Assembly: GCA_014740375.1 (NCBI GenBank)
Contig: GCA_014740375.1_3041.1
Source: a phage
Reading direction: 5' to 3' (one strand)
DNA length: 64,000 bases
Within the stretch, counting starts at the first letter, position 1. Every line of letters starts with the position of its first letter. Position numbers and translations under genes: made by a program. Shown here piece after piece: positions 2,329 through 55,475 of the stretch. The notes below the pieces were generated by a model. The model was not told the DNA's origin. It was given only the letters and a program-made list of their open reading frames with translations, and did no database searches.

Positions 2329-3333
2329 TTAGCTCACCAACTCAATCCAAGCTGGACGAAGTACATCTTGCACCATTTTAACTAATTCCTTTTTAATCAA
2401 AGAAGGATTATCTGCTTGAGTTAAAGTAATACCTTCACGAGAAGTTTCTTCCAAAATATCTTGAACAGTTAGCCCCATCACCTTTCCAAAATCCTTTGGA
2501 CCAATTTCACCAATTTTAGAAATAACGTTATTTACTCGGTTTAGTGTAACGTAACAAGCTAAAATCCCCACCAATTTGTTATCAGCTTCTGACAGTTCAA
2601 CTTTAGCTTTAATAGGCTTATCAGACTTTTTCTTTTCACTAAATTTAGAATTCTTACATTTGATGGCTACACGATTGCGATTAGGCAGCCAAGAAGGATA
2701 ACAAGGTTTCAATACATATCCTTCAGCGGTAAATACTTCGCCTTTGGCTTCAGCTTTCCAAACACATTTGTTAGCGTCAATTAAACCTGCATTATCTACG
2801 GTAAAATTATAAGACGGAACAACAGAATCCAAATCATTTGGAAGTTTAATAAGATCTTCAAATTTACCACGACCCAAAAGTGGAGCGATTTTAAACCCAA
2901 ATGAATTACAAAACGATTCCATCATGTAATCATCAACATAAGTTACATCACCACTTTCGGTAGTGACAATAATGTCAAATACATAAAAATCTTTATCGCC
3001 ATAATCAACATTCTTCTGAATGCCAGGTCCAGCGAATTCGCCAAAAACTTGATAAGTCACAACAGCTGAAGTTTCCATAATTTCTTGGACAGCTTTAATA
3101 GAATCTTCGTAATTCTTTAAAATAATTTCATAACCGAAGAAATCTTCAGCAGGAAGAATCGGTCCAGTACGTTTAGCGCAAGTTACTTTATCACGCTCAA
3201 TAATCAATGAGAAATTTGTGCCGTGAATCTTTTCACGAGCTACCCATTCGCCGCCAGTCAATCCCAAGCTATAAAGTTTTTCAATAAATTTAGAGTTGTA
3301 ATGATTTTCAAGACTGCTATACTTTTTAAACAT
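2329..3333 (-). CDS. rnlB: RNA ligase 2 (Rnl2)
   Basis: 334 aa; nucleotidyltransferase motif I KIHGTN near N-terminus; T4 position downstream of gene 24. Confidence 0.92.
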
Positions 3334-3342
3334 AATTAATCC

Positions 3343-3621
3343 TCAAAATGTAATTTCTAACCAATCACCATCACGCTGATCACTATTGACTTTAAAGCTG
3401 AATCCCTCTTTTCTCAGCCAATCACCAATTTCTTCAGTAATCAATTTATCGCGAGCAGTACAATAATAACTAAAATATGTTTTACCTTGTTCAGCTGCTT
3501 TATTAGCAAGTTCTGAAAAATCTTTAATAAAACACTCTAGCTTAAACTGTTTATTTTTTAATGCTTTTTCACGTAATTGATTAGCAAAAGATTCATTTTC
3601 ATAAAGATCATACTGTTCCAT
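3343..3621 (-). CDS. Hypothetical protein (T4 24.2 position)
   Basis: 92-aa ORF in operon with rnlB. Confidence 0.55.
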   Translation of the reverse strand: MEQYDLYENESFANQLREKALKNKQFKLECFIKDFSELANKAAEQGKTYFSYYCTARDKLITEEIGDWLRKEGFSFKVNSDQRDGDWLEITF

Positions 3622-3823
3622 TTTTCACCTTTTTATTGATATGTCTTTTTCTATAGACAACTTTTTCTCGAGTTTCAAATTTATTCTTAGCAGTCATAGC
3701 TCGAGCCCATAATACAGCCACTTCTTTTGCCTGTAAGTTCAATTCACGAGCAATTTCAATGAATGACTTTCCAGACTCATGAAGAGTAAACACCACAACC
3801 TCAGTTCTCATAATCAATCTCAT
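3608..3823 (-). CDS. Hypothetical small protein (T4 24.3 position)
   Basis: 71-aa ORF overlapping start of downstream ORF. Confidence 0.5.
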   Translation of the reverse strand: MRLIMRTEVVVFTLHESGKSFIEIARELNLQAKEVAVLWARAMTAKNKFETREKVVYRKRHINKKVKNGTV

Positions 3824-3890
3824 GTTATCGAGTTGGTGCCATTATATACATCATTTTCTGAGTGTGTTTTGTGTGCTTTCAAAATGAAGA

Positions 3891-3908
3891 AAGGGGCCGA
3901 AGCCCCTT
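3891..3908 (-). terminator. Terminator-like hairpin downstream of hoc
   Basis: AAGGGGC-CGAA-GCCCCTT stem-loop just past hoc stop, T-rich tract following on minus strand. Confidence 0.55.
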
Positions 3909-3912
3909 ATGA

Positions 3913-5337
3913 TTATGGATAGGTATAGATGATACCAGTTTCTAAAGCAGTTTTATGAATGATGTATCCATTACGTGATTCTTGAACATCAACTTCTGGA
4001 TAGTCTTTCATCATCTTCTGAAGAGTGTAACGATGCAGGTAGTATTTACTATCTGGATCTTCAGTTTTCCAATCTTTACCTTCTTCGGTCATTTTTTGGA
4101 TTTCATCCATAACCCACCAACCGCACCAGATATAAGCCGAAGTACGATGTGGAAGAGGATGAACATAAGGCAATTCACCTTCTGGTTCTGGAGCAACTTT
4201 ATCAGTTACCTGAACTTGACCTTCTGCTGTGATAGTTTTGCTATCATAATCAGTAGCAGTAACAGTTGCAGTAACTTCAATAGTTTGACTTCCAATAGAT
4301 GATGTATCAACGGTGTATACATTAGTTGACCCTTCTACTGGAGAAGAATCTTTCTTCCATGAATATTCAATTTGAGCTTCTTCTGGAGCATCAGTAACAT
4401 TAGCAGTAAATGTAGCCGAAGCATCTTGCTGAACGTTAATAGAAGGAGGAGTCAATGTAACCTGTGGATTCATTGTCTTCTTATTAACTGTTAATGATAC
4501 TTCATTAGAAGTAACTTCCTTTTCATTGTAATTTTCTGCAGTTACTTGCGCTACACACTTAACTGTTTTAGCTCCAACTGTGGTAGGAGTATAGTTAAAT
4601 GTAGAGTTAGTTTCTTCACCAATTTGAGAATCATCTACATACCATTGATATGTAGCAGACGCTCCATCGGGTTGAGAAACTAAGGCAGCAGTAAATTGAA
4701 CTGGGGTTCCAATAACTCCTGCTGGAGGACTATCAGGAGTTACTGTCAAGGTAGTTGTCTGCGTCTTTTTATTAACAGTCAGTGACACTTCATTAGAAGT
4801 AACTTCCTTTGCATCATAATCTGTCGCGGTTACTTGAGCTACACACTTAATTGTTTTAACTCCGCTTGCGTCAGGAGTGTAATTGAATGTAGTGCCAGTT
4901 GCTTCGCCCACAGGAGAACCGTCAACGTACCATTGATATGTAGCGTTTGCACCTGATGGCTGTGAAGCTAAGGCAGCAGTAAATTCAATTGGAGCTCCAA
5001 TCACTCCAGCATCAGGGCTACCAGGAGTTACAGCTAAGGTAGTTGTCTGTGTCTTATTTTGAACTGTGATAGTTGTCGTAGCTTCTGCTGTTTCAGGTTC
5101 AGATTCAGATTCTGGAACTGTATTTGTTGCAACGACTTTAATAGTCTTTTGACCGGCAGGTCCTTTTAATACATAATCAAAAGTTGCCGCCGATCCTTCT
5201 TGCGGAGCATTATCTACACTCCAAGCATAGGTAATAGTTCCACCTTCAGTTTGACCACTGGGTGCAGCAGTAAACTGCTTAGTTTCATCAATAACTCCAG
5301 TAGGTGTTTTAGGAGTTATATCAACTGTAAAAGTCAT
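3913..5337 (-). CDS. hoc: Hoc (highly immunogenic outer capsid protein) with four Ig-like domains
   Basis: 474 aa; Ig-like repeats plus C-terminal capsid-binding region; two adjacent domains are near-identical; T4 Hoc is 376 aa. Confidence 0.85.
   Translation of the reverse strand: MTFTVDITPKTPTGVIDETKQFTAAPSGQTEGGTITYAWSVDNAPQEGSAATFDYVLKGPAGQKTIKVVATNTVPESESEPETAEATTTITVQNKTQTTTLAVTPGSPDAGVIGAPIEFTAALASQPSGANATYQWYVDGSPVGEATGTTFNYTPDASGVKTIKCVAQVTATDYDAKEVTSNEVSLTVNKKTQTTTLTVTPDSPPAGVIGTPVQFTAALVSQPDGASATYQWYVDDSQIGEETNSTFNYTPTTVGAKTVKCVAQVTAENYNEKEVTSNEVSLTVNKKTMNPQVTLTPPSINVQQDASATFTANVTDAPEEAQIEYSWKKDSSPVEGSTNVYTVDTSSIGSQTIEVTATVTATDYDSKTITAEGQVQVTDKVAPEPEGELPYVHPLPHRTSAYIWCGWWVMDEIQKMTEEGKDWKTEDPDSKYYLHRYTLQKMMKDYPEVDVQESRNGYIIHKTALETGIIYTYP
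4477..5058 (-). repeat. Tandem direct repeat (2 x 291 bp) encoding duplicated Ig-like domain of Hoc
   Basis: Hoc residues ~94-190 and ~191-287 both run TQTTTL(A/T)VTP ... EVTSNEVSLTVNKK with ~75-80 percent identity. Confidence 0.8.
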
Positions 5338-5346
5338 AAGTTATCC

Positions 5347-6027
5347 TTATTTTAATGTTACGAAAGAAGAATTGCGTGTTTCACGAATTAGAACTGATCC
5401 GTCACGATTAATGTAGTAAATTAAGCTAAATAAAGTTTGGTGTGCCGACGCATGTTCAAAACTAGTTGGGTGAGATTTCCAATCCGGAGTTTCAGCAATC
5501 CACTGGTAAATCCACCAAGGAACAGTGCAGAATCCTGGATTTTTTCCAATCAGCTGAAGATTCGGACTAAAGTTTTCCGGAAGAGTAAATACAGACGGCT
5601 TTTCAGATTCAATAATCTCAGCTACAGCCTGCTCGAATTTTTCTTCAACAAAAGGAGTATCTTCAATCAAAACATCGGTATTTTCAGTAATTTTATCCGT
5701 TTCTACTACTTCAATTTTAATGTCAGATTTAACCGGAGAATCAATCAGAAGTGCTGCTTCTGGATTGACTTCTTCATCGTCATATTTTAATCCGTCTGCA
5801 GCATCAGCAGCATCAATTAAGTCTTTAATAGATAACCCATCAGTCTCTGGCATAGGTTCACTAGCGAGCTTCTGGAGGGCTTCTTCAATATCATTAACGA
5901 TATTATCAAAAGATTTATTCTTTTTGACTTTTATACCAAACTGTTCAGCATATTCAGCTAATTTAGCTTTAGCTTCTTTATTATCATCAAGAGCCTTCAG
6001 CTCTGCAATATAATCTTTATCTATCAT
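5347..6027 (-). CDS. inh: Inhibitor of prohead protease (Inh)
   Basis: 226 aa, same length and position as T4 inh (downstream of hoc). Confidence 0.7.
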   Translation of the reverse strand: MIDKDYIAELKALDDNKEAKAKLAEYAEQFGIKVKKNKSFDNIVNDIEEALQKLASEPMPETDGLSIKDLIDAADAADGLKYDDEEVNPEAALLIDSPVKSDIKIEVVETDKITENTDVLIEDTPFVEEKFEQAVAEIIESEKPSVFTLPENFSPNLQLIGKNPGFCTVPWWIYQWIAETPDWKSHPTSFEHASAHQTLFSLIYYINRDGSVLIRETRNSSFVTLK

Positions 6028-6076
6028 AATATTTCCTCAGTATAAATATAGATATATTTATTACTCGGAAAATAGT

Positions 6077-6694
6077 ATGTACCACTTTGTATATGAAACA
6101 ACAAATCTAATAAATGGTAAAAAGTATATAGGAAAACACTCTACTGATGACTTGAATGACGGTTACCTTGGTTCCGGTAAGGCAATTCAGCAGGCTATAA
6201 AGAAATATGGTGAAAACAATTTCTCTAGAACAATACTAAAAGAGTTTAAAACTTCCGAAGAAGCGTACATGTATGAAGAAGAAATTATAACTCCTGAACT
6301 AATAAAAAGCAAAAATTATTATAATATGAAACCTGGTGGAATTGGTGGAATTGTTATGACTACAGAGGTTATAGCAAAGATGAAAGAATCTTCCGCTAAA
6401 AGATTTGAAAACTCACCAGGCACGGTATTAGGTAAAACTTGTTACACTAATGGAACTAAAAATATTTTTATTAAACCTGGAGAACTTGTTCCAGAAGGAT
6501 TTGTAAAAGGGATGGTTCATCCTAATAGAAAGTCCAGAAAAGGATGTAAAGTCAAACCGACTACCACAGGAACTTTTTGGGTCAATAATGGCGCAATAAA
6601 TAAATTAATACAACCAGACGGTATTATTCCCGACGGATTTATTAAAGGTCGTCTCATGAAAAGAGATTCTAAAGGCAAATTTAGTAAGGCATAA
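6077..6694 (+). CDS. segE: GIY-YIG family Seg homing endonuclease (205 aa)
   Basis: N-terminal GIY-YIG module (HFVYETTNLINGKKYIGKH ... YNMKPGG); located between inh and uvsW where T4 segE lies; symbol by position. Confidence 0.65.
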   Translation: MYHFVYETTNLINGKKYIGKHSTDDLNDGYLGSGKAIQQAIKKYGENNFSRTILKEFKTSEEAYMYEEEIITPELIKSKNYYNMKPGGIGGIVMTTEVIAKMKESSAKRFENSPGTVLGKTCYTNGTKNIFIKPGELVPEGFVKGMVHPNRKSRKGCKVKPTTTGTFWVNNGAINKLIQPDGIIPDGFIKGRLMKRDSKGKFSKA

Positions 6695-6696
6695 TT

Positions 6697-8205
6697 ATGG
6701 ATATTAAAGTACATTTTCACGACTTCAGTCATGTACGCATCGATTGTGAAGAGAGCACGTTCCACGAATTAAGAGATTTCTTTTCGTTTGAAGCTGATGG
6801 GTATAGATTTAACCCTCGCTTCAGATATGGCAACTGGGATGGACGAATCCGTCTTTTAGATTATAATCGTCTTCTTCCATTCGGCTTAGTCGGGCAAATT
6901 AAAAAGTTCTGCGATAACTTTGGCTATAAAGCCTGGATTGACCCGCAGATTAACGAAAAAGAAGAATTATCAAGAAAAGATTTTGATGAATGGCTTTCTA
7001 AATTAGAAATCTATTCAGGAAATAAAAGAATTGAACCACACTGGTATCAAAAAGATGCAGTGTTCGAAGGATTAGTTAATCGTCGTAGAATTCTTAATCT
7101 TCCAACATCCGCAGGTAAATCTTTAATTCAAGCTTTGCTTGCTCGGTATTATTTGGAAAATTATGAAGGCAAAATTCTTATCATTGTTCCAACAACTGCT
7201 CTGACAACTCAGATGGCTGATGACTTTGTTGACTATCGTTTATTCAGTCATGCAATGATAAAGAAAATCGGCGGTGGAGCATCAAAAGATGATAAATATA
7301 AAAATGATGCACCAGTTGTTGTTGGTACATGGCAAACTGTAGTAAAACAACCGAAAGAATGGTTCTCACAGTTTGGAATGATGATGAATGATGAATGTCA
7401 TCTTGCCACAGGAAAAAGTATTTCATCTATCATATCAGGTTTAAATAACTGTATGTTTAAATTTGGTTTGTCTGGTTCATTACGTGATGGCAAAGCCAAT
7501 ATAATGCAGTATGTTGGAATGTTTGGTGAAATATTTAAGCCAGTAACGACCTCTAAATTAATGGAAGATGGACAAGTAACTGAGTTAAAAATTAATAGTA
7601 TTTTTCTTCGCTATCCCGATGAGTTCACTACTAAATTAAAGGGAAAAACTTACCAAGAAGAAATAAAAATTATTACTGGACTCAGTAAAAGAAATAAATG
7701 GATCGCTAAATTAGCTATTAAGCTTGCACAAAAAGATGAAAACGCTTTTGTCATGTTTAAACACGTATCGCACGGTAAAGCTATTTTCGATTTAATTAAA
7801 AATGAATACGATAAAGTTTATTACGTATCAGGGGAAGTTGATACCGAAACCCGCAACGTAATGAAAACCTTAGCTGAAAACGGTAAAGGAATAATTATAG
7901 TAGCTAGTTATGGTGTATTTTCTACCGGTATTTCAGTTAAAAATCTGCATCACGTTGTTTTAGCACACGGTGTTAAATCTAAAATTATTGTATTGCAAAC
8001 AATAGGTCGCGTATTACGTAAGCATGGTTCCAAAACAATCGCAACAGTCTGGGACCTCATCGATGATTGTGGTGTTAAGCCAAAATCTGCTAATACGAAA
8101 AAGAAATACGTTCATTTGAACTATCTTTTAAAACACGGCATTGATCGTATTCAGCGCTACGCAGATGAAAAATTTAATTACGTAATGAAAACAGTTAATT
8201 TATAA
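6697..8205 (+). CDS. uvsW: UvsW DNA helicase
   Basis: 502 aa; helicase motifs (PTSAGKS, DECH); T4 position. Confidence 0.92.
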   Translation: MDIKVHFHDFSHVRIDCEESTFHELRDFFSFEADGYRFNPRFRYGNWDGRIRLLDYNRLLPFGLVGQIKKFCDNFGYKAWIDPQINEKEELSRKDFDEWLSKLEIYSGNKRIEPHWYQKDAVFEGLVNRRRILNLPTSAGKSLIQALLARYYLENYEGKILIIVPTTALTTQMADDFVDYRLFSHAMIKKIGGGASKDDKYKNDAPVVVGTWQTVVKQPKEWFSQFGMMMNDECHLATGKSISSIISGLNNCMFKFGLSGSLRDGKANIMQYVGMFGEIFKPVTTSKLMEDGQVTELKINSIFLRYPDEFTTKLKGKTYQEEIKIITGLSKRNKWIAKLAIKLAQKDENAFVMFKHVSHGKAIFDLIKNEYDKVYYVSGEVDTETRNVMKTLAENGKGIIIVASYGVFSTGISVKNLHHVVLAHGVKSKIIVLQTIGRVLRKHGSKTIATVWDLIDDCGVKPKSANTKKKYVHLNYLLKHGIDRIQRYADEKFNYVMKTVNL

Positions 8206-8219
8206 GGGCTTCGGCCCTT
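8204..8219 (+). promoter_or_regulatory. Intercistronic GC hairpin (UUCG loop) between uvsW and uvsW.1
   Basis: AAGGGC-TTCG-GCCCTT immediately before GGAG Shine-Dalgarno of next ORF. Confidence 0.5.
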
Positions 8220-8230
8220 TGGAGAAAAAG

Positions 8231-8461
8231 ATGTTACTAGAATTTAAACAATTTCTTTATGAAGCTTCTATTGATGAATTTATGGGTAAAATTGCCTCTT
8301 GTCAAACAATAGAAGGTCTAGAAGAACTTGAAGCTTATTATAAGAAAAGAGTTAAAGAAACTGAATTAAAAGATACTGATGACATCTCTGTGAGAGATGC
8401 TTTGGCAGGAAAAAGAGCTGAATTAGAAGATTCAGACGATGAAGTAGAAGAAAGCTTTTAA
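8231..8461 (+). CDS. Hypothetical acidic protein (uvsW.1 position)
   Basis: 76 aa from ATG with GGAG Shine-Dalgarno; track ORF starts earlier at a TTG. Confidence 0.55.
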   Translation: MLLEFKQFLYEASIDEFMGKIASCQTIEGLEELEAYYKKRVKETELKDTDDISVRDALAGKRAELEDSDDEVEESF

Positions 8462-17081: not shown

Positions 17082-17111
17082 ATTATAACACAACACGAGG
17101 GACTTGTAAAC
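17082..17111 (-). promoter_or_regulatory. T4-type early promoter
   Basis: Minus strand GTTTAC, 18 bp, TATAAT; part of a 54-bp cassette repeated at 32381-32434. Confidence 0.6.
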
Positions 17112-19168
17112 TACATCTTGAACTTTTTAGACATTCCGTTGATGTTAACCAAAGAAGCCAAGATTTGAGAAACTTCGTTTTCCTCTTCTTTTGATTCTTC
17201 TACAAGGAATTGATTAAACCCAGCCATTGGACGAACTTCGCCAGTTTCCATTAGATGATCGCCATCATATACCGATTCTTCTAATTGTTCAGAAGGAGGA
17301 ACGATTGTGCCTTCGATTAGATACTTGTTATAAGCAGTTTCTTTCATCATGTACGTGCTTACTTTATTAATCTTCAACAAAATTCCACGTGGTAGAATAA
17401 CTTCAGCTTCTGATGGAAATCCCGATAAATGACCTGGAACGATAACTTTGATTCGCTCAGCCCCTTTTATTACCATACCTACGCTAGTTTCAGCATCTTC
17501 ATTCGCATAAGCAGAATGACTGCCCATATGCATTAAATCTTCAGCATCAACAGAACCTTCTCCTTCACCAGAAAATACTGCGCCGGAATCATCTAGAGCC
17601 ATATAATTTTTACCATGCTCACCGAAGATATTTGGTTTAAGCGATGTTGATACGAAGTTCTTGAAATAGAACATTTTATTTTCAATATTATGGCGTAAAG
17701 TTTTAAAAGTAACTTCTTGTCCACGATAAAGCGTAGTTCCTGGAGGAAGAACTGAACCTTTGGCAAAGGCAGAATCCAGCGTCTCGATGTGTTTAATAGC
17801 TCGTTCCATATATTCTTCACGGGTAGAATCTGGTTTACCCAAGAGGAACGAGTTCATTTCAACATATGAATCTGCACAATAATCTTCAATTACATCAGAC
17901 TCAGCCTGAGTCAGTCCTTTTGGAGTTACTTCGGTGCTTGCGTATTCATATGCCTGAGCAGCAGATTCATTAATCAATTTATAAATGCCATTCATGACAA
18001 ATTGAATAATAGCTACCTTTTCGTCTGGTGTGGCTTTAGAACCTTTAACTAAATCATTGATAATTTTCTTAATAACATCAAAGCTATTAGAAATATTAAT
18101 GTCAGCGAGATCGCTCAAAATTTTATCGGTTTTATAATCAAAAAATTCTTTATTCTTTAAATATTCTTGAGAACCTTGATGTGTTATATCGCTCTGCAGT
18201 CTGATAGACGGATCACGTAAACGCGCATGGGCCAATGCAATATGATTTCGGAAGCTTTCTAGTTCATAATCGTTAGATTTAAAACGAGAAGCACTTCTCA
18301 TACCACCGATAGCTCCTTTGCCGAAGTTTGAACCAATCTGAATAACACCAGAGTTCATTGGTCCTTCTGCTTTATATACCGGAACTTTAGATTCAAACTC
18401 TTGATATTTCTTGGCAGCGAAGCTATCACCCTGAAGCGAAGCATCGACAGTAGAATATTGAGCTTGCGCTGCTAATCGACGACTAATTTTAGTTTTCTGA
18501 ATAACAGCTTGATCCGTGCGCTTATCATTTTCTAAAGCAATAGAAGCAGCAACAGCAACAGCTTTAGGAACAGCATTACCTGTTTTAACATCTACATAAA
18601 CATCACCAACCTTTGATTCAACTTTTGTGAATAACTCAGTTGAAATAGGAGGTACACCTGGAATGTCTTCTAAATTGGCATTTTTACGGTAAACCATAAT
18701 ATATGCATACTTTTTATCATAATCCCAGATTTCCTTTAAAAGAACATATCGACCTGCTCCTTTAGTACGTACTAAACGGTCAGCAATAACTTGCATTTGA
18801 CGAGCAGCGCCATTTGTTTTACTTTTTAGTACGCGGAATAGGCATGCGTCAATTTTGTACTGTTTCATTGTTTGAAGAGCAGTATCAAAAACCGCATTAA
18901 TGACACCAATTGGATTTCCACCCAAGTTTTTAAGTTTAACTAATGATAGTTTCTCATTGACACCTATCATTACGATATGCATCATTTTATCGCCTGGCTT
19001 AACGTTTTTATTTGTATCACCGCCAGAGGTGTATGTACAAAATCTAAATCCAGGAAGCACGCTTTCTTCACCGGCTTGAATAGCAAAAATTTGAGGTATT
19101 TTATGCTTAGGATTTAAGTTAACAACCGGCGCCGAAGCGCCGTCAAATAATTCTGTAATAAGTTCCAT
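17111..19168 (-). CDS. Alt-like ADP-ribosyltransferase, second paralog (685 aa)
   Basis: About 60-65 percent identical to upstream alt at both termini; ART R-S-E elements (YRG, FVSTSL, EAEVILPRG); divergent central region. Confidence 0.85.
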   Translation of the reverse strand: MELITELFDGASAPVVNLNPKHKIPQIFAIQAGEESVLPGFRFCTYTSGGDTNKNVKPGDKMMHIVMIGVNEKLSLVKLKNLGGNPIGVINAVFDTALQTMKQYKIDACLFRVLKSKTNGAARQMQVIADRLVRTKGAGRYVLLKEIWDYDKKYAYIMVYRKNANLEDIPGVPPISTELFTKVESKVGDVYVDVKTGNAVPKAVAVAASIALENDKRTDQAVIQKTKISRRLAAQAQYSTVDASLQGDSFAAKKYQEFESKVPVYKAEGPMNSGVIQIGSNFGKGAIGGMRSASRFKSNDYELESFRNHIALAHARLRDPSIRLQSDITHQGSQEYLKNKEFFDYKTDKILSDLADINISNSFDVIKKIINDLVKGSKATPDEKVAIIQFVMNGIYKLINESAAQAYEYASTEVTPKGLTQAESDVIEDYCADSYVEMNSFLLGKPDSTREEYMERAIKHIETLDSAFAKGSVLPPGTTLYRGQEVTFKTLRHNIENKMFYFKNFVSTSLKPNIFGEHGKNYMALDDSGAVFSGEGEGSVDAEDLMHMGSHSAYANEDAETSVGMVIKGAERIKVIVPGHLSGFPSEAEVILPRGILLKINKVSTYMMKETAYNKYLIEGTIVPPSEQLEESVYDGDHLMETGEVRPMAGFNQFLVEESKEEENEVSQILASLVNINGMSKKFKM

Positions 19169-19171
19169 GAT

Positions 19172-21268
19172 TTATCCTTGAACGAACTTGTAAGGCATGT
19201 TTGTAATATCTATGCAAGACGCAATAATTCCAAGAGATGATTCTACTTTTTGTTTAACATTTGATGAAACAAATGATGCAAAGTCAACTCTGTCTTCTAT
19301 TTCAATATCACCTGTCATTGCAACTACTTCACCAGTTTCCATTAGACGATCACCGTCATAAATTACTGATTCGGTGAGTTCTTCCGTAGTCATAACTTCA
19401 GCTTGAATGAGTTTTGTATTATTAGATGTTGTTCCGTCATTATTAGAAGCATCAGTTATTTTATTAACTTTGACCATCAATCCGCGTGGTAGAATAACTT
19501 CAGCTTCTGTTGCTATTCCGAGACTTCCTGGATATACAACATTAACTTTATGAGCTCCATCAATTGCCCATCCTATTTGAACTTTAACGTATTCAGGATT
19601 TTCTTTATACGCTCTTATTTCGTTTGGATTAATAGTTATTCCTTCTTCATTTTTATCAACTGTCAGTTCATTACGAGCTTCTGGTTCTAAAAGACCAATA
19701 CCAGCATGTGTAATTCCAAAACGTCCAAAAATGATAGGAGTTAAAGAAGTAGATACAAAATTTCTGAAATAGAACACTTTATTTTTAACTAGTGCTTCGT
19801 ATATAGGAGCAGTCATGCTTTGAGCACGATAAACTGTAATGCCTTCTGGTATACGGTCACCGTTTTCAAAAGCTGAATCTAAGTTATTTATAGCAGATTC
19901 AATTTCTTTTTCACTCATTACATCATATCGTTCTGGATTGTAGCGTCCTAAAAGAAGATTATTGATGTCAGTATATCCTGAACCACAATACTCTCTAATG
20001 CCGCGCTTTTGTGATGGAGTATATTTAGAACCATCACGGGCAATAGTAATATCAATCATTGGACCTGCACCAATTCCAGAAAAACTATAAATCATTCTTT
20101 TGAGGAATTTAGTTTTTGCTGCGTTCCAGGAATTTTTAGTTATTTCTTCCCAGACTTCATCTGGCTGCCCTTTACGAGTTTTATTATGTTTATCAAGCCA
20201 ATTATCTTTATATTCTTCAAAGAGTTGATTAACAGCTGCTGCGTATTTCTCTAAACATTTTATTGAAGTAGTTGGTTCATTTTTAATCGCATTAAGAATT
20301 ACATCTTTAATTTTTTCAGAAACTTCATTAACCTCACTTTTTGAAAAGAATTTATAGTCATAATGAAGTTCATCTGCAGTTCCTTCAGCAATAATTTTTG
20401 CTGCCTTAGTTTTAGAAGCTAATGAATTAATTCCAAGCTTCATTTCTTCTGCTTCGGGAATTAAAGGAGCGGTAGCAGGTTTATTGAAATTAGCTGCGGT
20501 AGATTCATACTTCTGGAATAATTCACTTTCAAATCTAGAAGATTCTAATGATTGACTTTGTGCAATTGCTCTACGGGAAATTTTAACTTTAACGATTACA
20601 GCTTGATCAGAACGTTTATCGTTTTCTTGCGCAATAGATGCAGCAATTGCCTCATTTTTAGTTACTTGAGCTCCGGTATCTTTATTGATATAAACATCAC
20701 CGACCTTCGATTCAACTTTAGTAAAGAGCTCTGTACTAATTTCCGGAACTCCTGGAATGTCTTCTAATGATACATTTTTGCGATGTATAAGAATATATGC
20801 GTACTTTTTATCGTAATCCCAGAGTTCCTTAAGAAGGACGTATCTGCCACCTGAACGACTACGGATAAGTCTATCAGCAATAAGTTGAATTTGACGAGCT
20901 TGACCAGCAGTTTTAGACTTAAGAATACGGAGCATGCAGGCATCAATTTTATACTGACGCATCGTCTGCATCGCAACAGTAAAAACTGAATTGATGTAAT
21001 TAATTGGGCTTGGACCGAGACCTTTTAATTTAGCGATTGAACCTTTAGCAGTTAATGTAAAAGGAACAATATGCATCATTTTATCGCCCATCTTTAAATC
21101 GCGATTAGTATCACCTCCAGATGTATAAGTACATAAACGAAAACCTGGTTGTTCAATTGCGTCATCAACATGAACTGAAAAAATTTGCGGTATTTTCTTC
21201 TTTGGATTTAAGTTTGTAATCGGAAGAGTAGTATCTTCGTCAAATAATTCTGTAATGAGTTCCATCAT
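19172..21268 (-). CDS. alt: Alt ADP-ribosyltransferase (virion-packaged)
   Basis: 698 aa; MELITELFD N-terminus; ART motifs (YRA, FVSTSL, EAEVILPRG); immediately downstream of gene 30 as in T4; late promoter upstream. Confidence 0.88.
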   Translation of the reverse strand: MMELITELFDEDTTLPITNLNPKKKIPQIFSVHVDDAIEQPGFRLCTYTSGGDTNRDLKMGDKMMHIVPFTLTAKGSIAKLKGLGPSPINYINSVFTVAMQTMRQYKIDACMLRILKSKTAGQARQIQLIADRLIRSRSGGRYVLLKELWDYDKKYAYILIHRKNVSLEDIPGVPEISTELFTKVESKVGDVYINKDTGAQVTKNEAIAASIAQENDKRSDQAVIVKVKISRRAIAQSQSLESSRFESELFQKYESTAANFNKPATAPLIPEAEEMKLGINSLASKTKAAKIIAEGTADELHYDYKFFSKSEVNEVSEKIKDVILNAIKNEPTTSIKCLEKYAAAVNQLFEEYKDNWLDKHNKTRKGQPDEVWEEITKNSWNAAKTKFLKRMIYSFSGIGAGPMIDITIARDGSKYTPSQKRGIREYCGSGYTDINNLLLGRYNPERYDVMSEKEIESAINNLDSAFENGDRIPEGITVYRAQSMTAPIYEALVKNKVFYFRNFVSTSLTPIIFGRFGITHAGIGLLEPEARNELTVDKNEEGITINPNEIRAYKENPEYVKVQIGWAIDGAHKVNVVYPGSLGIATEAEVILPRGLMVKVNKITDASNNDGTTSNNTKLIQAEVMTTEELTESVIYDGDRLMETGEVVAMTGDIEIEDRVDFASFVSSNVKQKVESSLGIIASCIDITNMPYKFVQG

Positions 21269-34054: not shown

Positions 34055-35231
34055 AAAAGTATTTTTTAAAACTCATCATAACTTTATCATCAACATCATT
34101 ATCAATCTGTGCAACAAGATAAGATGACAGTTCTACTTCTTGTGGCGCGGATTGAACATTATCAGAATTAAGATATTCACGAATCCAAGGATATGGATGT
34201 TTAACCGGAGCATCGGTAATTGGGCATGGAAGACCGCACTGTTTCATACGAGATACAGTTAAGTAATCAATAAAGCTCCACATGCTATTTGTATTTAATC
34301 CAGGAACATCGCCATCTTTAAATAAATGAACTGCCCAATCTTTTTCTTGGCGGTTAACTTCCATGAAAATATCAACTGCTTCTTGTTCACACTCTTGAGC
34401 AATTTTAACCCATTGACCGCCATCAGTACCAGATTGAAGTTGACGAATAATATATTGGGTGCCTTTAAGGTGAAGCTGTTCATCGCGTGCAATGAACTTC
34501 ATAATCTTGGCATTACCTTCCATGATTTCCATGTTCTTATGGAAGTTAAAGGTACATGCGAAAGATACATAAAAACGAATAGCTTCCAATGCGTTGATTA
34601 CATGCAAACAGAGGTAAAGAGATTTCATTAGCTCACGCTTCCAATATGTCTCATGCTCAATAGCATCTTCAATAACGTCTTCGTCTGCATTAATTTCTTT
34701 TTGGTATTCGATATCAGCTTTAGCGTTTTCCCAATAACGAGTTTTAATCAGAACATCATCATAATAACGTCCAATGGATTCAGCACGTTTCATAATAGCT
34801 TCATCTAATACAATTTCATCAAATACCTTCGATGGATCAGTATAAAGATTTCGCATGATATGAGTATATGAACGACTGTGAATAGTTTCACTAAAAGTCC
34901 ATGTAGCAACCCATGTATCAAGACTTGGGTCTGAAATTAATGACATAAGTACAGCAGATGGCGCGCGACCCTGAATACTATCTAAAAGTGATTGATACTT
35001 CAAGTTGTTAGTAAAAATATTTTGCTGATACTGAGGAAGCTTATTAAACTGTGCAGCATCCATCATCAAGTTTACTTCTTCAGGACGCCAGAAAAATGAT
35101 AATTGCTTTTCGGTTAAATCTTCAAAAACTTTATGACGTTGAATATCATAACGCGCAATACCAAGACCTGAACCAAAAAACATAGGTTCTTTTAAAACAT
35201 CAACTGGATTTGTATTAAAAACTGTGCTCAT
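34053..35231 (-). CDS. nrdB: Ribonucleotide reductase small subunit (uninterrupted)
   Basis: 392 aa continuous ORF with di-iron ligands; no intron interruption. Confidence 0.93.
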   Translation of the reverse strand: MSTVFNTNPVDVLKEPMFFGSGLGIARYDIQRHKVFEDLTEKQLSFFWRPEEVNLMMDAAQFNKLPQYQQNIFTNNLKYQSLLDSIQGRAPSAVLMSLISDPSLDTWVATWTFSETIHSRSYTHIMRNLYTDPSKVFDEIVLDEAIMKRAESIGRYYDDVLIKTRYWENAKADIEYQKEINADEDVIEDAIEHETYWKRELMKSLYLCLHVINALEAIRFYVSFACTFNFHKNMEIMEGNAKIMKFIARDEQLHLKGTQYIIRQLQSGTDGGQWVKIAQECEQEAVDIFMEVNRQEKDWAVHLFKDGDVPGLNTNSMWSFIDYLTVSRMKQCGLPCPITDAPVKHPYPWIREYLNSDNVQSAPQEVELSSYLVAQIDNDVDDKVMMSFKKYF

Positions 35232-35282
35232 AAATTTTCCGCTTAGTTAATAGTTGGTGACTCGTCCGTGAGTCAAATTATA

Positions 35283-37547
35283 TCATAATTTACAGGATGA
35301 ACAATCTTCAGCTTTTGGAGTTTCTATTTCATAATCATCAGTACCAGAACCATCGCGGGTATTATGATAATAGAAATTTTTTCCGCCAAAATACCAAAAA
35401 TACAAAAGGTCATCAATCATTATTGACATTGGAACCTTGCCTTTAGGGAAGATTTGGGGGTCATAGTATGTATTCGCCGAAGCTGATTGACATACCCATT
35501 TCAGCATAATAGCTACCTGCGTAAGATAAGGTTTATTACCTTTCTTAGCTAATTTCCATGTATAATCATAGAGGTCTATGTTATGCTCAATATTGGGCAC
35601 GACTTGATTAAAGGAGCCCTCTTTTGATTCTTTAACAGAGACTGGTCCACGTGGAGGCTCGATACCGTTTGTACTGTTAGAAACTTGGGAAGATGACTCA
35701 CATGGCATAAGTGCTGATAATGTGCTATTACGGATGCCAAAGAGCTTAAGGTCTTCCCGCAGCGACGACCAGTCACAAACGTATTTTGGAGCTGCGATTT
35801 GGTCAATCTTTTTATTGTACCAGTCGATAGGTAATTCGCCTCTAGACCAACGAGTGTCTGAATAATATTCGCAAGGTCCTTTTTCTTTGGCGAGCTTAAT
35901 GGATGCTTTAATGAGTCCATACTGTAATCTCTCAAATAGTTCATGTGTTAAATCGTTAGCATCTTCATAAGAAGCAAAGTTACTTGCCAGCCAAGCTGCA
36001 TAGTTAGTAACACCTACACCGAGGTTACGACGCTTTTTAGCTTTTTCTGCTTCAGGAACTGGATATCCTTGGTAATCCAAAAGATTATCAAGAGCACGAA
36101 CTTGGACTTCTGCCAATTCATTAATTTTATCTTGGTCTTGCCAGTCAAAATTATCCAGTACGAATGCAGAGAGAGTACACAATCCAATTTCAGCATCAGG
36201 ACTATTCACATCATTTGTTGGAATAGCAATTTCACAGCACAAGTTACTCTGACGAATAGGTGCCTTTTCACGAATAAACGGAGTATAGTTATTCGTATTA
36301 TCAATGAACTGTACATAAATTCTTGCTGTTCCTGAGCGTTCAGTCATGAGCAATTCAAATAGTTCACGGGCTTTAATACGCTTTTTACGAATATTAGGGT
36401 CTTTTTCTGCTGCTTCGTATAATTCACGGAAACGGTCTTGGTCTTTAAAATAAGAATAATAAAGCTCGCCACCCATTTCATGCGGACTGAACAAAGTAAT
36501 GTAATCGTTCTTTCCGAATCGTTCCATCATCAAATCATTCAGCTGAACACCATAATCCATATGACGAATGCGGTTTTCTTCTACGCCTTTGTTATTTTTC
36601 AAAACGAGAAGATTTTCAACTTCCAAATGCCAAATAGGATAATAAGCAGTAGCAGCGCCGCCACGAATTCCACCCTGTGAACATGATTTAACTGCAGTCT
36701 GAAAATGTTTCCAAAAAGGAATAACACCAGTATGGCGTACTTCACCCATGCCAATCTTAGAACCTTCGGCACGAATCATACCAACGTTAATACCAATTCC
36801 AGCGCGTTTAGAGATATATTCAACAATTGAAGCGGAAGCCTTATTAATAGACTTTAATGAATCACCTGCCTCAATAACAACGCATGAACTAAACTGTCGA
36901 GTCGGAGTACGACAACCAGCCATAATAGGAGTTGGCAGTGAAATCTGTCGAGTAGATACTGCTTCATAAAAACGGATAACATGTTTTAATCTATCAACAG
37001 GTTCATCTTGATGCAGTGCCATTCCAATAGCCATAAATGCAAACTGTGGAGTTTCATAAATTTGACCGGTGGTTTTATCTTTGACTAGATATTTTTCTTT
37101 TAATTGCATCGCTCCGGAATAAGTAAATTCCATATCCCGCTCGTGCTTAATTTTTGATTCTAAAAATGTAATTTCTTCTGCTGAATATTTTGACAACAAT
37201 TCAGGGTCGTATTTACCTTCATTTACACAGTAAGAAATATGGTCAATAAATGAACGCGGTTCATACTGCCCATAAACATGCTTACGAAGAGCAAACATTA
37301 AACAACGTGCAGCTACATATTGGTAATCAGGCTCTTCAACCGAAATAGAATTCGCAGCGGCCTTAATGACAATAGTCTGAATATCATCAGTTGTCATTCC
37401 ATCACGGAGATAAGATTTAATATTTTCATATAATTCATAAGGATCTACTGATGTTCCCTCAGCTGCCCAAGATAAAACTTTAATAATTTTTTGTGGGTCA
37501 AAGCTCTGAGAAACACCACTACTTTTGATAACATTAATTAATTGCAT
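35283..37547 (-). CDS. nrdA: Ribonucleotide reductase large subunit
   Basis: 754 aa; class Ia RNR. Confidence 0.95.
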   Translation of the reverse strand: MQLINVIKSSGVSQSFDPQKIIKVLSWAAEGTSVDPYELYENIKSYLRDGMTTDDIQTIVIKAAANSISVEEPDYQYVAARCLMFALRKHVYGQYEPRSFIDHISYCVNEGKYDPELLSKYSAEEITFLESKIKHERDMEFTYSGAMQLKEKYLVKDKTTGQIYETPQFAFMAIGMALHQDEPVDRLKHVIRFYEAVSTRQISLPTPIMAGCRTPTRQFSSCVVIEAGDSLKSINKASASIVEYISKRAGIGINVGMIRAEGSKIGMGEVRHTGVIPFWKHFQTAVKSCSQGGIRGGAATAYYPIWHLEVENLLVLKNNKGVEENRIRHMDYGVQLNDLMMERFGKNDYITLFSPHEMGGELYYSYFKDQDRFRELYEAAEKDPNIRKKRIKARELFELLMTERSGTARIYVQFIDNTNNYTPFIREKAPIRQSNLCCEIAIPTNDVNSPDAEIGLCTLSAFVLDNFDWQDQDKINELAEVQVRALDNLLDYQGYPVPEAEKAKKRRNLGVGVTNYAAWLASNFASYEDANDLTHELFERLQYGLIKASIKLAKEKGPCEYYSDTRWSRGELPIDWYNKKIDQIAAPKYVCDWSSLREDLKLFGIRNSTLSALMPCESSSQVSNSTNGIEPPRGPVSVKESKEGSFNQVVPNIEHNIDLYDYTWKLAKKGNKPYLTQVAIMLKWVCQSASANTYYDPQIFPKGKVPMSIMIDDLLYFWYFGGKNFYYHNTRDGSGTDDYEIETPKAEDCSSCKL

Positions 37548-38101: not shown

Positions 38102-38962
38102 TTACACCGCCATCTTTCCTTTAATAGGAGGGTGTGATTCATAGTTGTTAAGAATAAAATTATGCGGCTTTGCGAATTGACTCAACCAAAATACCTGCGA
38201 TTCTGTGTCCCATTCATCAAATTCATCTGGAAATTTTAATTGTAATTCGCATAAATCCATAGGTTCACGACGCAAAATTTCTTTACATTGTTCTACGTGA
38301 TTCATATAGATATGAGTATTACCGCCAGAAAATATCAAATCTCCCGGAATAAGATTACACATCTTAGCTACAATATGAACTAACGTAGCATATGATGCAA
38401 TATTAAATGGAAGACCGAGGAAAACATCTACTGATCGTTGATACCACTGAAGGTCAAGGTATCCATTACGAACATTAAATTGATAGAACATATGACAAGG
38501 CGGTAATGCCATATATTTAAGTTCAGCTGGATTCCATGCAGAAACAATTTGACGCCTATCATTTGGCAGTTTTTTAATACGATCAATAACTTCTATAATT
38601 TGGTCTACACCGCCAAAATCACGCCACTGTTTTCCATAAATTGGACCAAGTTCACCGCTATGGTATCCTAAATCTTTTGCTTGATTTTCGTAATTTTCAT
38701 CCCAGACTGTTTTGCCTTGGATTAACGAATCATGCTGAATTAATCGTAAATCATTGACATTTGTGCTTCCTGACAAAAACCATATTAACTCAGCAATGCA
38801 AGCTTTCCAGGCGAGCTTTTTAGTTGTTACCGCAGGAAAACCTTTAGTTAAATCCCAACGTAATTTAGTACCGAACAAAGCAATTGTTCCTGTGCCTGTT
38901 CGGTCATCGGTTTCATAGCCATTTTCAAAAATGTCTTTAATTAAATCTTGGTATTGTTTCAT
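38102..38962 (-). CDS. td: Thymidylate synthase (uninterrupted)
   Basis: 286 aa continuous ORF starting [12 protein letters not shown]; no group I intron. Confidence 0.95.
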
Positions 38963-39007: not shown

Positions 39008-40202
<1,195 letters not shown>

Positions 40203-40213
40203 ATTATCTCCTA

Positions 40214-40546
40214 TTAAAAAGGATCAGGAACATATCCGCTAGCTTTAATCATTTTAATTAACGTTAACATTCCTTTGTTAACTGCTCGTGAGATTTCATC
40301 AAAAACTTCATCACTAAAAAGTTCTAACACGCCCTTCTGAACTTTTAATTTACAGCCAACAATTTCTTCATCGCCTATAGTAAATTCATTACCACCAATT
40401 CCACCGAAAAACTTAATTACACCAGTTAACTGTCTTCCACGAGAATATGGGTCGTGTGATAAAGTAATATGAGTCACCCCGGGTACAGTTTTAAATTGGC
40501 AGCGAATATTTACTTGTGAAATTCCAGTTACATGAATGTCAGACAT
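40214..40546 (-). CDS. Hypothetical protein (frd.2 position)
   Basis: 110-aa ORF. Confidence 0.55.
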   Translation of the reverse strand: MSDIHVTGISQVNIRCQFKTVPGVTHITLSHDPYSRGRQLTGVIKFFGGIGGNEFTIGDEEIVGCKLKVQKGVLELFSDEVFDEISRAVNKGMLTLIKMIKASGYVPDPF

Positions 40547-42827: not shown

Positions 42828-42926
42828 TTTTATTTCCTTTTTAATTTAATTAACAGTTGGTGCTATGACGATGTATGACCTCATAGCTGGTCAGTGAGAT
42901 AATTATAATCTATTTATAATAAGCAA
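42828..42926 (-). promoter_or_regulatory. Gene 32 leader and promoter region
   Basis: Late promoter TATAAATA on minus strand (plus 42910-42917), adjacent TATAAT and MotA-box-like TTGCTTA, then A/U-rich leader TTAAATTAAAAAGGAAATAAAAATG. Confidence 0.55.
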
Positions 42927-50919: not shown

Positions 50920-53900
50920 ATGGCTACTTTAAAACAAATACAATTTAAAAGAAGCAAAACCGCAGGTGCACGTCCTGCTGCTTCAGTATTAGCCGAAGGT
51001 GAATTGGCTATAAACTTAAAAGATAGAACAATTTTTACTAAAGATGATTCAGGAAATATCATTGATCTAGGTATTGCTAAAGGCGGTCAAATTGATGGAA
51101 ATGTAACTATTGATGGAACTTTACGCGTCAATGGACCAATAAACAACTTTGGAAATTTTTCTACAAGTGGTACTATTACGGCAAGTAATATTGTTTCTGC
51201 TACAGTATTCAGATCAACATCCGGTTCATTTTATACAAGAGCAATAAATGATACTGCAAATGCCCATCTTTGGTTTGAAAATACAAATGGCTCAGAACGT
51301 GGTGTTTTATATTCAAAACCGCAGTCTGAAAATGAAGGCGTAATTACAATGCGTGTTCGTCAAGGAACCGCTGCGGGAGCTCAAAATTCAGAATTTCATT
51401 TCATTTCTACTGATGGCGGTATCTTCCAGGCACGTAAGTTAACTGCTTTAACTTCTATTAGTACACCAACTATTAGTGTTAATTTAATTAATCATGATTC
51501 TAAATCATTTGGACAATACGATTCGCAATCTTTGGTTAACTATGTTTATCCTGGAACCGGTGAAACAAATGGTGTAAACTATCTTCGTAAAGTTCGAGCT
51601 AAATCAGGTGGAACTATTTACCATGAAATTTGTACAGCTCAGACTGGGCTAGCTGATGAAGTTTCTTGGTGGACTGGTAATATACCGTTATTTAAACTAT
51701 ACGGTATTCGTAACGACGGTAGAATGATTATCCGCAATAGCTTGGCCATTGGTACTGTGACTGAAGGATACCCGTCAAGCGATTATGGAAATACCGTGGT
51801 AATGGGAGATAGGTATTTAGCTCTTGGCGATAATGCTTCTGGACTTAAATGGGTTCGTACTGGCGTTATTGACTTAATGGCTAACGGTATTTCTGCGGCG
51901 ACTATTATTAATAATGGTATTAATAGTACTAAAAAATTGATGGTTGGTTATAGCCGTGATTCCGGCTCTACTTGGGATTTCCCAAATAACAACCAGGCAA
52001 TGTTTACTGCGCGTACCGATATTGATGGTAATAATAACGGCGATGGTCAGACTCATATTGGTTATAGCAGCAATTCTAAAATGTATCACTATTTCCGTGG
52101 CACGGGTCGTATGGCTGTCGGAATGGCTGAAGGTTTAATTGTTGAGCCGGGTATTTTAGATATTAAAACTGGGTCCAATAGAGTTGCTATTAGAGCAGAT
52201 GGTACATTTGACTCAACCCAACGTATTTCAATGCGTACTGGGTTATTTTTATCAGGTGATGACAATACCAATGCTTTGTCATTTAAAGCGCCTACAGGTG
52301 TTGACGGGACAAAAACCATTAACTGGGATGCAGGCACTCGTAATGGTCAGAATAAAAATACTGTAACCATTAAAGCGTGGGGTAACTCATTTAACTCAAC
52401 TCCAGGTAATAGAGAAACTGTATTCGAAGTTTCAGATTCACAAGGTTATTATTTCTACGCTCAACGTACTAATCCTGCGTCAGGTCAAACAGTAGGTCCG
52501 GTTAACTTTAAATTTAACGGAACTGTTGAAACAGACCATATCATAGGCCTTGGAAATATAAGTGCCTCCGGTACAGGTTCTTTTGGTGGCAATGTTACCA
52601 TGTCTAACGGTTTGTTTGTCCAAGGTGGTTCTTCTATTACTGGACAAGTTAAAATCGGCGGAACTGCTGATGCATTAAGAATTTGGAATGCTGAATATGG
52701 TGCTATTTTCCGTCGCTCAGAAAGTAATCTTTATATTATCCCGACTCCTAAAGGTGCCGGAGAATCAGGCGGTATAAGTAATCTTAGACCATTGATAATA
52801 GAACTGAACACCGGCACAGTTAAAATGTCGCATGATGTTCATTTAGGAGATTCTGGATCTGGTACAGGATTATTACAAGTAAGTAATAGTCTTAAAACTA
52901 TTAAAATGATATGTCCAGTAACTATTAATGAACGTAATGCAGCGCTTACTTTAGATTCTCCTTCATCTTCTTCTGCTAATTATTTGCAGGGTTCTAAAGC
53001 TGGAACTAGATCGTGGTATGTTGGTCTTGGTGGTGCTGGAAATGATTTATCACTTTATAGCCAATCTTATGGACATGGTCTTGTTATAAGTGATAATTTC
53101 ACGTCAATCACTAAACCTCTTAAAGTCGGAAATGCCCAACTAGGAACTGACGGTAATATTACCAACGGTTCTGGTAATTTTGCTAACTTAAACACTACGC
53201 TAAATCGTAAAGTTAATTCTGGATTTATTACTTATGGAGCAACTGCTGGATGGTATAAGTTTGCAACAGTAACAATGCCACAATCCACTTCTACGGTCTT
53301 CTTTAAAATAGCCGGTGGTTCTGGATTTAATAGTGGATTATTCACACAATGCAATATTGCTGAAATTGTTTTACGTACTAGCAATGAAAGACCTGCTGAC
53401 TTAAATGCTGTATTATACACAAGAACAATTGCAGCTGCATTTAAAAATATTGCAGTTAATAACGTCTCTGGAGATACATATGACATTTATGTTTATGCCG
53501 GAACATATTGCAATCAATTAACTTGTGAATGGTCATGTACCGAAAATGCTACTGTTAGCGTTATTGGTATTAACTCATCGACCCAATCACCTGTGGATGC
53601 TCTTCCAGATACAGCAGTTGATGGGCAAGTTGCTAATGTTCTTAATAACTTGGTTGATCGTGGTAAAGTTAAGCGTTATGAAGCTGATTCTGAAATAGCT
53701 ATCAATAGTCAAACTGGTATTCGTATTAGAAGCAATGGCGATAAAACTGGTTCTGTTGCTACAATGCTACGAAATGATGGCGGTAGTTTTTATATTCTAT
53801 TTACAGATAAAAATGCCACCGATGGCGCAGCAACCGTTAATGGTGATTGGAATAGTAAACGTCCTTTTGCAATTAACTTAACAACCGGCGAAGTGCTAAT

Positions 53901-54648: not shown

Positions 54649-54649
54649 A

Positions 54650-54667
54650 AGAGGGCTTCGGCCCTCT
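54650..54667 (+). promoter_or_regulatory. Intercistronic GC hairpin (UUCG loop) between genes 37 and 38
   Basis: AGAGGGC-TTCG-GCCCTCT. Confidence 0.5.
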
Positions 54668-54678
54668 AAGGATTTTTA

Positions 54679-55470
54679 ATGGCAATTGTAGGTGTTCCTG
54701 GCTGGATTGGCGAATCTGCCGTGAATGAAACTGGACAACGTTGGATGGATGCTGCGATGAAAGCTGTTCGTGTTTCAGTTCCCGGCTGGATGAGCTCAAT
54801 GGCTGGACAATCTAAAGAAGTATATTATAGTGTTGGTGCTAGCAATTCTTACAATAAAGACACATTGATAAATTGGATAAAAGCCCAAGGCAGTACTCCT
54901 GTTGTTATTACTATTACAGGAAATATTGTTTCTCAATCTACTGGTGTTCCATGCTTAGATTTTCCTAGCTCATTAACTAATGCATATGTTACCTTAAATA
55001 TTAATAGTGGGGTTCATGTATTAGGTCGGGGAGGAAATGGCGGAAGTAACTCTGCTGGTGGAGCAGGAGGAACTGCAATAAATAACGGAATTGGAACTCG
55101 TTTAAGAATAAACAATAATGGTATTATTGGTGGCGGTGGCGGTGGCGGCGCTGGTGCTAGATATCATCCTTTCCCCCAAATGGATATGATATTTGGTGGC
55201 GGCGGAGGTCGTCCATTTGGTGCAGCAGGTCGAGCAGGCGGCGGCGCTGCGGCAGCATCTGCCGCTACAATTTCTGCTCCTGGTAAAGGTACTGTTTCTG
55301 GGGTTCACCATGGAGGAGATGGTGGAGATTTGGGGGCTGCGGGCAAATCTTCATATATTCAAGGTGGTACTGGAGGAACTGTTCACTCGGGTGGCGCAGC
55401 AGGTAAAGCTGTTACTGGTAATGCTCCAACTTGGACTAAAGTTGGTACAATATATGGTGCAAGAGTATAA
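54679..55470 (+). CDS. 38: T2-type tail fibre tip adhesin gp38 with glycine-rich motifs
   Basis: 263 aa; several Gly-rich motifs (GGGGGGGAGA, GGGGGRPFG, GGDGGDLGAAG) separated by variable segments; T4 gp38 is a 183-aa chaperone. Confidence 0.85.
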   Translation: MAIVGVPGWIGESAVNETGQRWMDAAMKAVRVSVPGWMSSMAGQSKEVYYSVGASNSYNKDTLINWIKAQGSTPVVITITGNIVSQSTGVPCLDFPSSLTNAYVTLNINSGVHVLGRGGNGGSNSAGGAGGTAINNGIGTRLRINNNGIIGGGGGGGAGARYHPFPQMDMIFGGGGGRPFGAAGRAGGGAAAASAATISAPGKGTVSGVHHGGDGGDLGAAGKSSYIQGGTGGTVHSGGAAGKAVTGNAPTWTKVGTIYGARV

Positions 55471-55475
55471 TTTTG

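Follow-up and report, generated by a model that had tools for sequence, protein, structure and literature searches.

A 205-aa ORF separates inh from uvsW in the 64,000-nt stretch of phage DNA analyzed here (the window). Its place raises two questions: which gene is it, and does it move into relatives that lack it? In a reading made from the sequence alone, the ORF had been taken for a free-standing GIY-YIG homing endonuclease gene. The present analysis provides its identity with T4 SegE, the fold of its product, a presence/absence polymorphism among relatives, a recoded block of uvsW linked to the gene, and a signature of purifying selection. Cleavage, homing at about 100% and co-conversion come from the literature on the T4 protein and are carried over by analogy to the window allele (E97), which would be expected to behave likewise.

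Identity of the gene between inh and uvsW

The window is a segment of a Tequatrovirus genome, collinear with T4 from 105.6 to 168.3 kb. The ORF listing gives an ATG-started frame of 205 aa at 6077 to 6694 (+), stop codon included, lying between inh and uvsW and opposite to inh, exactly as the sequence-only reading had it. The gap between the divergent inh and segE genes is 49 nt, and uvsW begins 2 nt past the segE stop (TAA at 6692–6694, uvsW ATG at 6697). Gene order and strands are those of the T4 annotation, and the arrangement in RB3 is alike (Table 1).

Alignment with T4 SegE (NP_049795), the check proposed in that reading, showed 204 of 205 residues identical (99.5%) with no gaps. The sole difference is a conservative one in the linker, E97 in the window protein and D97 in T4 SegE; E97 is the RB3 state. 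The segE DNA differs from that of T4 at 5 of 618 nt, and the window, T4 and RB3 hardly differ in an 811-nt alignment that runs across both junctions. The product matched PHROG 314, 'homing endonuclease' (1.3e-43), and a match to the NCBIfam entry 'group I intron endonuclease' was sub-threshold. The near-identity of protein, DNA and flanks excludes a chance ORF and identifies the gene as segE proper, the GIY-YIG homing endonuclease gene already characterized as free-standing in T4. The sequence-only reading had claimed the position of T4 segE for the gene, and the match goes further than that: T4 segE (formerly hoc.2) has the same length, the same place between inh and uvsW, the same orientation and the same junctions.

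Table 1. Positions of the segE locus features and of related sites in the window.
Feature	Position	Strand	Basis or remark
inh (hoc.1), left flank, 226 aa	5347–6027	-	ORF; T4 annotation; offers repair homology
TATAAATA, exact match to the T4 late-promoter consensus	6041–6048	+	29 nt upstream of the segE ATG
Left junction and segE leader	6065–6076	+	Identity with segE-less alleles stops at 6064 (…TTATTAC)
segE ORF, 205 aa + stop	6077–6694	+	204/205 aa to T4 SegE NP_049795; DNA near-identical to T4 and RB3; PHROG 314
N-terminal GIY-YIG catalytic domain, aa 1–92	6077–6352	+	Pfam PF19835, PF01541; AlphaFold; fold match to I-TevI; family conservation
Presumed DNA-binding region with two internal repeats, aa 119–150 and 164–195	6431–6661	+	Self-comparison; model
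AAGG, likely uvsW Shine-Dalgarno sequence within the last segE codons	6686–6689	+	Read from the sequence; putative function
segE-linked recoded uvsW 5' end	6697–6850	+	Presumed cleavage-resistant version of the SegE target
uvsW helicase gene, 502 aa	6697–8205	+	ORF; T4, RB3 and RB27 annotation; carries the homing target in segE-less phages
uvsW.1	8219–8461		After uvsW
Sites of missing T4 elements	944–1003; 34555/34558; 35231–35287; 38413/38414; 42890–42926		Comparison with T4

The protein differs from T4 SegE by this one substitution; the genome around it also differs from T4. Five T4 elements are missing from the window: segD, the nrdB intron with I-TevIII, nrdB.1 together with mobE, the td intron with I-TevI, and segG. 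The td gene is a single ORF of 286 aa (38102–38962). When the window was searched by tblastn with the Seg, Mob and I-Tev proteins that T4 encodes in the syntenic interval, segE was returned, plus the non-mobile denA (endonuclease II), and nothing else. This bears out the claim that no other gene in the window looks like a mobile element. Where the window has inserts that T4 lacks (td-frd, frd-frd.1, the pseT and alt regions), no endonuclease-like ORF was found; their contents are a second alt paralogue, DUFs and small ORFs without known function. By this comparison, segE is the sole survivor or invader among the homing endonuclease genes in the window.

Several other differences from T4 were observed along the window. 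The window has alt (ADP-ribosyltransferase) twice in tandem, as full-length paralogues of 685 aa (17111–19168, -) and 698 aa (19172–21268, -); T4 has one alt and the short remnants alt.-1 and alt.-2, annotated as an old duplication. The hoc product (3913–5337, -) is longer than that of T4, 474 versus 376 aa, and its ORF has visibly repeated Ig-like segments; hoc of RB27 is likewise long (1419 nt). Between td and frd, which overlap in T4, stands an ORF of 123 aa with no Pfam match (39008–39379, -). Two more ORFs lie between frd and frd.1, one of 81 aa with no match (39957–40202, -) and one of 110 aa assigned to DUF7247 (40214–40546, -). Over 51831–55476, the distal part of the gene 37 ORF (50920–54648, 1242 aa) has no DNA similarity to T4; the same holds for the ORF at the gene 38 position (54679–55470, 263 aa). 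This suggests that the tail-fibre tip and the adhesin type differ from those of T4. Finally, uvsW is one ORF of 1764 nt in the T4 RefSeq (4678–6441 of the T4 locus sequence, L001); in the window, RB3, RB27 and RB51 it is a gene of about 502 aa followed by a separate uvsW.1.

The GIY-YIG domain and its missing arginine

The GIY-YIG N-terminal module that had been noticed in the letters was recovered both by profile and by fold. PF19835 (SegE_GIY-YIG) scored above its cutoff in this module (E 6.6e-9), and PF01541 (GIY-YIG) slightly below it (E 2.9e-4, 21.5 bits for a cutoff of 22.6 bits). A family alignment was made of 65 homologues with coverage of at least about 90%, drawn from 1418 matches at E<=0.001. 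The AlphaFold model built from it has a mean pLDDT of 85.7, with values of 93–98 over aa 1–80. Its best Foldseek matches in the PDB were the I-TevI catalytic domain entries 1mk0 and 1ln0 (prob 1.00, TM 0.61–0.65, 26–27% identity), and I-TevI catalytic-domain entries were the only convincing fold matches. A PDB search by sequence alone gave as best match a phage tail tube protein (E 0.008), which we judged spurious; I-TevI was recovered by the fold search.

The motif tyrosines are present as Y6 (FVY) and Y17 (YIG), and align with Y6 and Y17 of I-TevI. They are invariant in all 65 family members, as are G19, D28, Y30, G32-S33-G34, K43, G45, N83 and G87-G88; H21 is conserved in 64 of the 65 and E67 in 63. 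In the hhalign comparison, the pairs SegE/I-TevI were Y6/Y6, Y17/Y17, N83/N90 and E68/E75, where E68 stands one residue off the conserved E67. The SegE counterparts of I-TevI Y6, Y17, E75 and N90 are thus Y6, Y17, E67/E68 and N83. I-TevI, the endonuclease of the T4 td intron, is also alike in its layout, an N-terminal GIY-YIG domain followed by a linker and a C-terminal DNA-binding region. It is, however, intron-encoded whereas SegE is free-standing, and the identity amounts to about 26% only.

The arginine gave a different picture. No Arg within aa 1–95 is invariant across the 65 SegE family members, and I-TevI residues 23–31, which include R27, found no partner in SegE by hhalign. The I-TevI helix alpha1, with R27 and H31, is missing from the SegE model and is replaced by a loop at aa 24–34. 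The canonical catalytic Arg (I-TevI R27) and its helix are therefore absent from the whole SegE subfamily, T4 SegE included. The sequence-only reading had proposed that the assignment be judged on the catalytic Tyr, Arg and Glu in an alignment: the Tyr and the Glu were found, but the Arg is missing subfamily-wide. Since the Arg is lacking in every member, including a T4 enzyme reported to be active, its absence is not a valid ground for rejection and would have given a false negative.

What stands in SegE-type domains in place of the R27 helix is a loop with the invariant D28, Y30 and G32-S33-G34, together with H21. Among the T4 enzymes, SegD, SegF and SegG belong to the same mechanism class as SegE, with other target genes and other C-terminal regions. 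The N-terminus of SegD is 46% identical to that of SegE over 95 aa, and the two have in common the motif G-x-H-x-T…DGY-x-GSG. We would predict, although tentatively and with more doubt than conviction, that the PF19835 GIY-YIG domains as a group (SegE, SegD and >1000 metagenomic relatives) cleave without the canonical Arg of the superfamily. A literature search for a discussion of the missing SegE Arg found nothing, older non-open literature lying outside its reach.

The C-terminal region carries two internal repeats with the pattern xNG..N..I.P...IP.GF.KG. Self-comparison showed them to be identical at 12 of 32 positions (E 1e-7), and both are modeled by AlphaFold as a beta-hairpin. Many homologues carry PF07460 (NUMOD3) in this region; the C-terminal region of the window protein gave no Pfam match at E<=1, NUMOD3 included, and no zinc finger or helix-turn-helix was detected in SegE. 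This region is highly conserved in the orthologues of S16 and KAW3E185 at the same locus.

Distribution of segE and the linked 5' end of uvsW

The distribution of the gene was analyzed with a query made of the flanks, from which segE was omitted. Of the 517 phage records that it matched, 500 cover 80% or more of its length. Among 58 evenly spaced full-length matches the locus spans either 1551 nt with segE (18 rows) or 935 nt without it (40 rows), and nothing intermediate was seen. The segE sequence itself is found at 95% identity or more in 159 records, compared with the approximately 500 that have these flanks. The gene is present in about one third of the relatives and cleanly missing from the rest. 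In the segE-less RB27, T2, RB51 and BCH953P4, inh and uvsW are 50 nt apart, and no degenerate segE copy was seen among the matches listed.

The inh|uvsW junction harbors a gene of the SegE family in three genera. Besides the Tequatrovirus copies, such a gene is found at this locus, in the same orientation and directly adjoining uvsW, in Salmonella phage S16 (Gelderlandvirus; gp113) and in Escherichia phage KAW3E185 (Mosigvirus). The proteins share with the window SegE the GIY-YIG N-terminal domain and a strongly conserved C-terminal …NRKSRKGC.VKPTTTG..WVNNG.INKL…. The S16 gene has 68.7% DNA identity to segE, and the Salmonella-phage relative P0004 (named for vB_SenM_UTK0003) has 64% aa identity to the window protein. 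The KAW3E185 protein differs by a linker about 40 aa longer; its type is presumably that of P0007, a homologue about 49% identical. Pairwise dN/dS values against the T4, S16 and KAW3E185 orthologues are 0.07–0.16, with dS saturated for distant pairs. A ratio of about 0.1 indicates that segE is under purifying selection and not in decay. Downstream of its SegE-like gene, the S16 helicase is annotated as three overlapping pieces, gp114, gp114.1 and gp115 UvsW (3119–5537 of the S16 locus sequence); another insertion, frameshifts or an artefact of the annotation may be the cause.

The left junction is sharp: the window is identical to segE-less alleles up to 6064, and similarity returns at the uvsW start codon. 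Positions 6065–6076 (TCGGAAAATAGT) align weakly with the uvsW leader of the empty alleles (ATGGTATTTAGAC). The element TATAAATA belongs to the stretch that is identical in RB27, T2 and RB51, and in segE-less alleles it directly precedes uvsW. Its function is presumed from what is established on T4 late promoters. Since TATAAATA lies in the part common to the segE-less alleles, the insertion of segE would have separated uvsW from its presumed late promoter. We infer the promoter and ribosome-binding assignments around segE from the letters. A scan of 5800–7000 for sigma-70 promoters and terminators gave fewer sites than shuffled sequences and none upstream of segE; a MotA-box motif was not found in 5900–6800. 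In the account of PMC2988022, the promoter that serves segE lies in non-coding DNA upstream of it, and the retention of seg genes, segE included, is favored by the promoters for downstream genes that they contain. Such a uvsW promoter was not located inside segE, where the only candidates are late-promoter-like sites with 1 mismatch, such as AATAAATA at 6595–6602.

The presence of segE goes together with a change in the neighboring gene. In a sliding comparison with the segE-less RB27, T2 and RB51, the window showed 21–25 mismatches per 100 nt over 6692–6841, and the mismatch in uvsW returned to a background of 1–5% by about 6850–6900. The same comparison gave 0 mismatches to T4 and RB3, the T4 sequence being equal to that of the window throughout 6692–6791, and no divergence spike was seen on the inh side against segE-less alleles. 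Within the first 46 codons of uvsW, there are 18 synonymous changes relative to segE-less alleles, five conservative non-synonymous changes and one codon indel. The first 50 uvsW codons of the window have a GC3 of 40%, compared with 25% for the remainder of the gene and 27.5% for RB27.

Linkage was evaluated with a query composed of 100 nt of the segE 3' end and 150 nt of the uvsW 5' end. At 95% identity or more, 158 records were found; 167 cover at least 80% of the query and hence include the segE part. Lower identities were given by 31 records at 80–90% and 620 at 60–80%. All 158 records with the T4-type recoded block carry segE, and none of the segE-less records has the block at 90% identity or more, the best reaching 83%. 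The recoded uvsW block and segE are strictly linked in the database. Such linkage is expected if the block, being either the carrier's resistant version of the target or co-mobilized with segE, travels with it by co-conversion. The block may be presumed to confer self-resistance, given a target whose location is taken from the literature.

Some alleles depart from these two types. The segE-less Tequatrovirus BCH953P4 has a mosaic uvsW (3479–3631 of its locus sequence, L008), of the empty type in codons 1–29 and of the T4 type from codon 30. This mosaic may be a natural breakpoint of recombination or co-conversion within the recoded block. The 31 records at 80–90% identity are intermediate in a similar way. 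At uvsW codons 13–14, the segE-carrying alleles of the three genera (window, KAW3E185, S16) have CAT-GT(A/T), with no TAT at codon 9 (window 6721–6774). The Tequatrovirus empty alleles have TAT…CAC-GTG at those codons (3503–3559 of L005 and L006). It is speculative, in a small sample where JS98 is out of register, that uvsW codons 9–26 (CAC-GTG in empty alleles versus CAT-GTA in carriers) contain the core of SegE recognition.

Homing of segE and its alternatives

Kadyrov et al. reportedly placed the cleavage site at the 5' end of RB30 uvsW in 1997 and found T4 DNA to be cut less efficiently. Table 1 of Edgell, Gibb and Belfort (PMC2988022) lists segE as a GIY-YIG endonuclease gene that is free-standing and inserted between inh and uvsW; its activity is given as demonstrated and its target as lying in uvsW. 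Brok-Volchanskaya et al. (PMC2330249), summarizing Kadyrov et al. 1994 and 1997, place the cleavage in the hoc.1-uvsW region of RB30 and RB52, both of which lack segE. In the same summary, segE homes into RB30 at about 100%, in a manner that needs intact segE and depends on homology, and the flanks are co-converted. Intronless homing of Seg enzymes is described as a break in the gene beside the insertion in endonuclease-less relatives, followed by donor repair and co-conversion, and their part in marker exclusion is given as established (PMC2988022). The suggestion that the window gene may drive localized conversion of the uvsW region is thus in line with what these two sources report experimentally for T4 x RB30. 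A literature search beyond PMC2988022 and PMC2330249 for the exact SegE recognition site found nothing.

Taken over to the window, the following course may be proposed. segE would be transcribed together with uvsW, probably from the late promoter just upstream. On co-infection with a segE-less relative, SegE would make a site-specific break in both DNA strands at the 5' end of the relative's uvsW, in the inh-uvsW junction. The break would be resected and repaired by the phage recombination machinery with the segE-carrying genome as template, so that segE and its adjacent flank are copied into the recipient. Such a course would amount to 'intronless homing' accompanied by co-conversion, for which marker exclusion is another name. 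The carrier genome would be largely spared, the first 150 nt or so of its uvsW being recoded, mostly silently. We consider it very probable that the window holds an intact segE with predicted activity, which homes into segE-less relatives.

Other explanations for the gene can be weighed against these data. It might be a domesticated or decaying remnant, immobile and kept since the expression signals of uvsW depend on the insert. The likely uvsW Shine-Dalgarno sequence inside the last segE codons and the late promoter upstream of segE would fit such a dependence, as would the embedded downstream promoters that, according to PMC2988022, favor retention of seg genes including segE. The ORF is, however, intact and one conservative residue away from a T4 enzyme reported active, its catalytic Tyr, Glu and Asn are conserved, and its dN/dS is near 0.1. 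Moreover, about two thirds of the relatives keep an empty and presumably cleavable site, and opportunities for homing thus persist. We regard a remnant as very unlikely. Less probable still, to the point of being negligible, is the reading as a chance ORF or as a GIY-YIG-like protein that lacks nuclease function. The lack of a conserved Arg in the catalytic domain, with no counterpart of I-TevI 23–31 (R27 included), and the PF01541 score slightly below cutoff could be read in its favor; yet PF19835 is above its cutoff, the I-TevI fold is matched with prob 1.00, and Y6, Y17 and N83 are invariant in a family drawn from the 1418 homologues at E<=0.001. The nearly identical T4 protein is, in addition, described as an active, site-specific endonuclease in PMC2988022 and PMC2330249. 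A chance ORF and an inactive pseudogene were ruled out by identity, conservation and dN/dS.

A further explanation concerns the reason for which segE is kept rather than its nature. The gene could be maintained mainly for the benefit of the phage and not be purely selfish, either through marker exclusion of competitors or through break-induced amplification of neighboring genes. SegB is described as helping anti-defense loci to undergo segmental amplification (PMC13096335), marker exclusion by Seg enzymes is treated as established (PMC2988022), and the matches listed contain no degenerate copy of segE. On the other hand, the window shows no sign of amplification or of a defense-related neighbor, its flanks being inh and uvsW. 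We find this explanation improbable, although less so than a remnant. The molecular mechanism would be the same, so that it does not compete with the identification of the gene as segE.

An intact and mobile segE is thus the preferred reading, and the feature as such is already known: it is T4 segE in a T4 relative, in its usual place before uvsW, a correct but ordinary result. segE, a textbook free-standing homing endonuclease gene, was characterized in the 1990s, and a 1997 paper reported that it homes into relatives without segE. Two points only are mildly non-trivial: the SegE subfamily has an active site without the Arg, and throughout the database segE is strictly linked to the recoded 5' end of uvsW. 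If the former is true, Arg-less SegE-type domains imply a variant active-site chemistry in an enzyme that is reported to be active. As for the latter, the locus is a clean natural example of homing, in which segE, carried by about one third of the sequenced T4-like relatives, is in every case accompanied by the same 150 nt of recoded uvsW, and it helps to date and trace recombination among Tequatroviruses.
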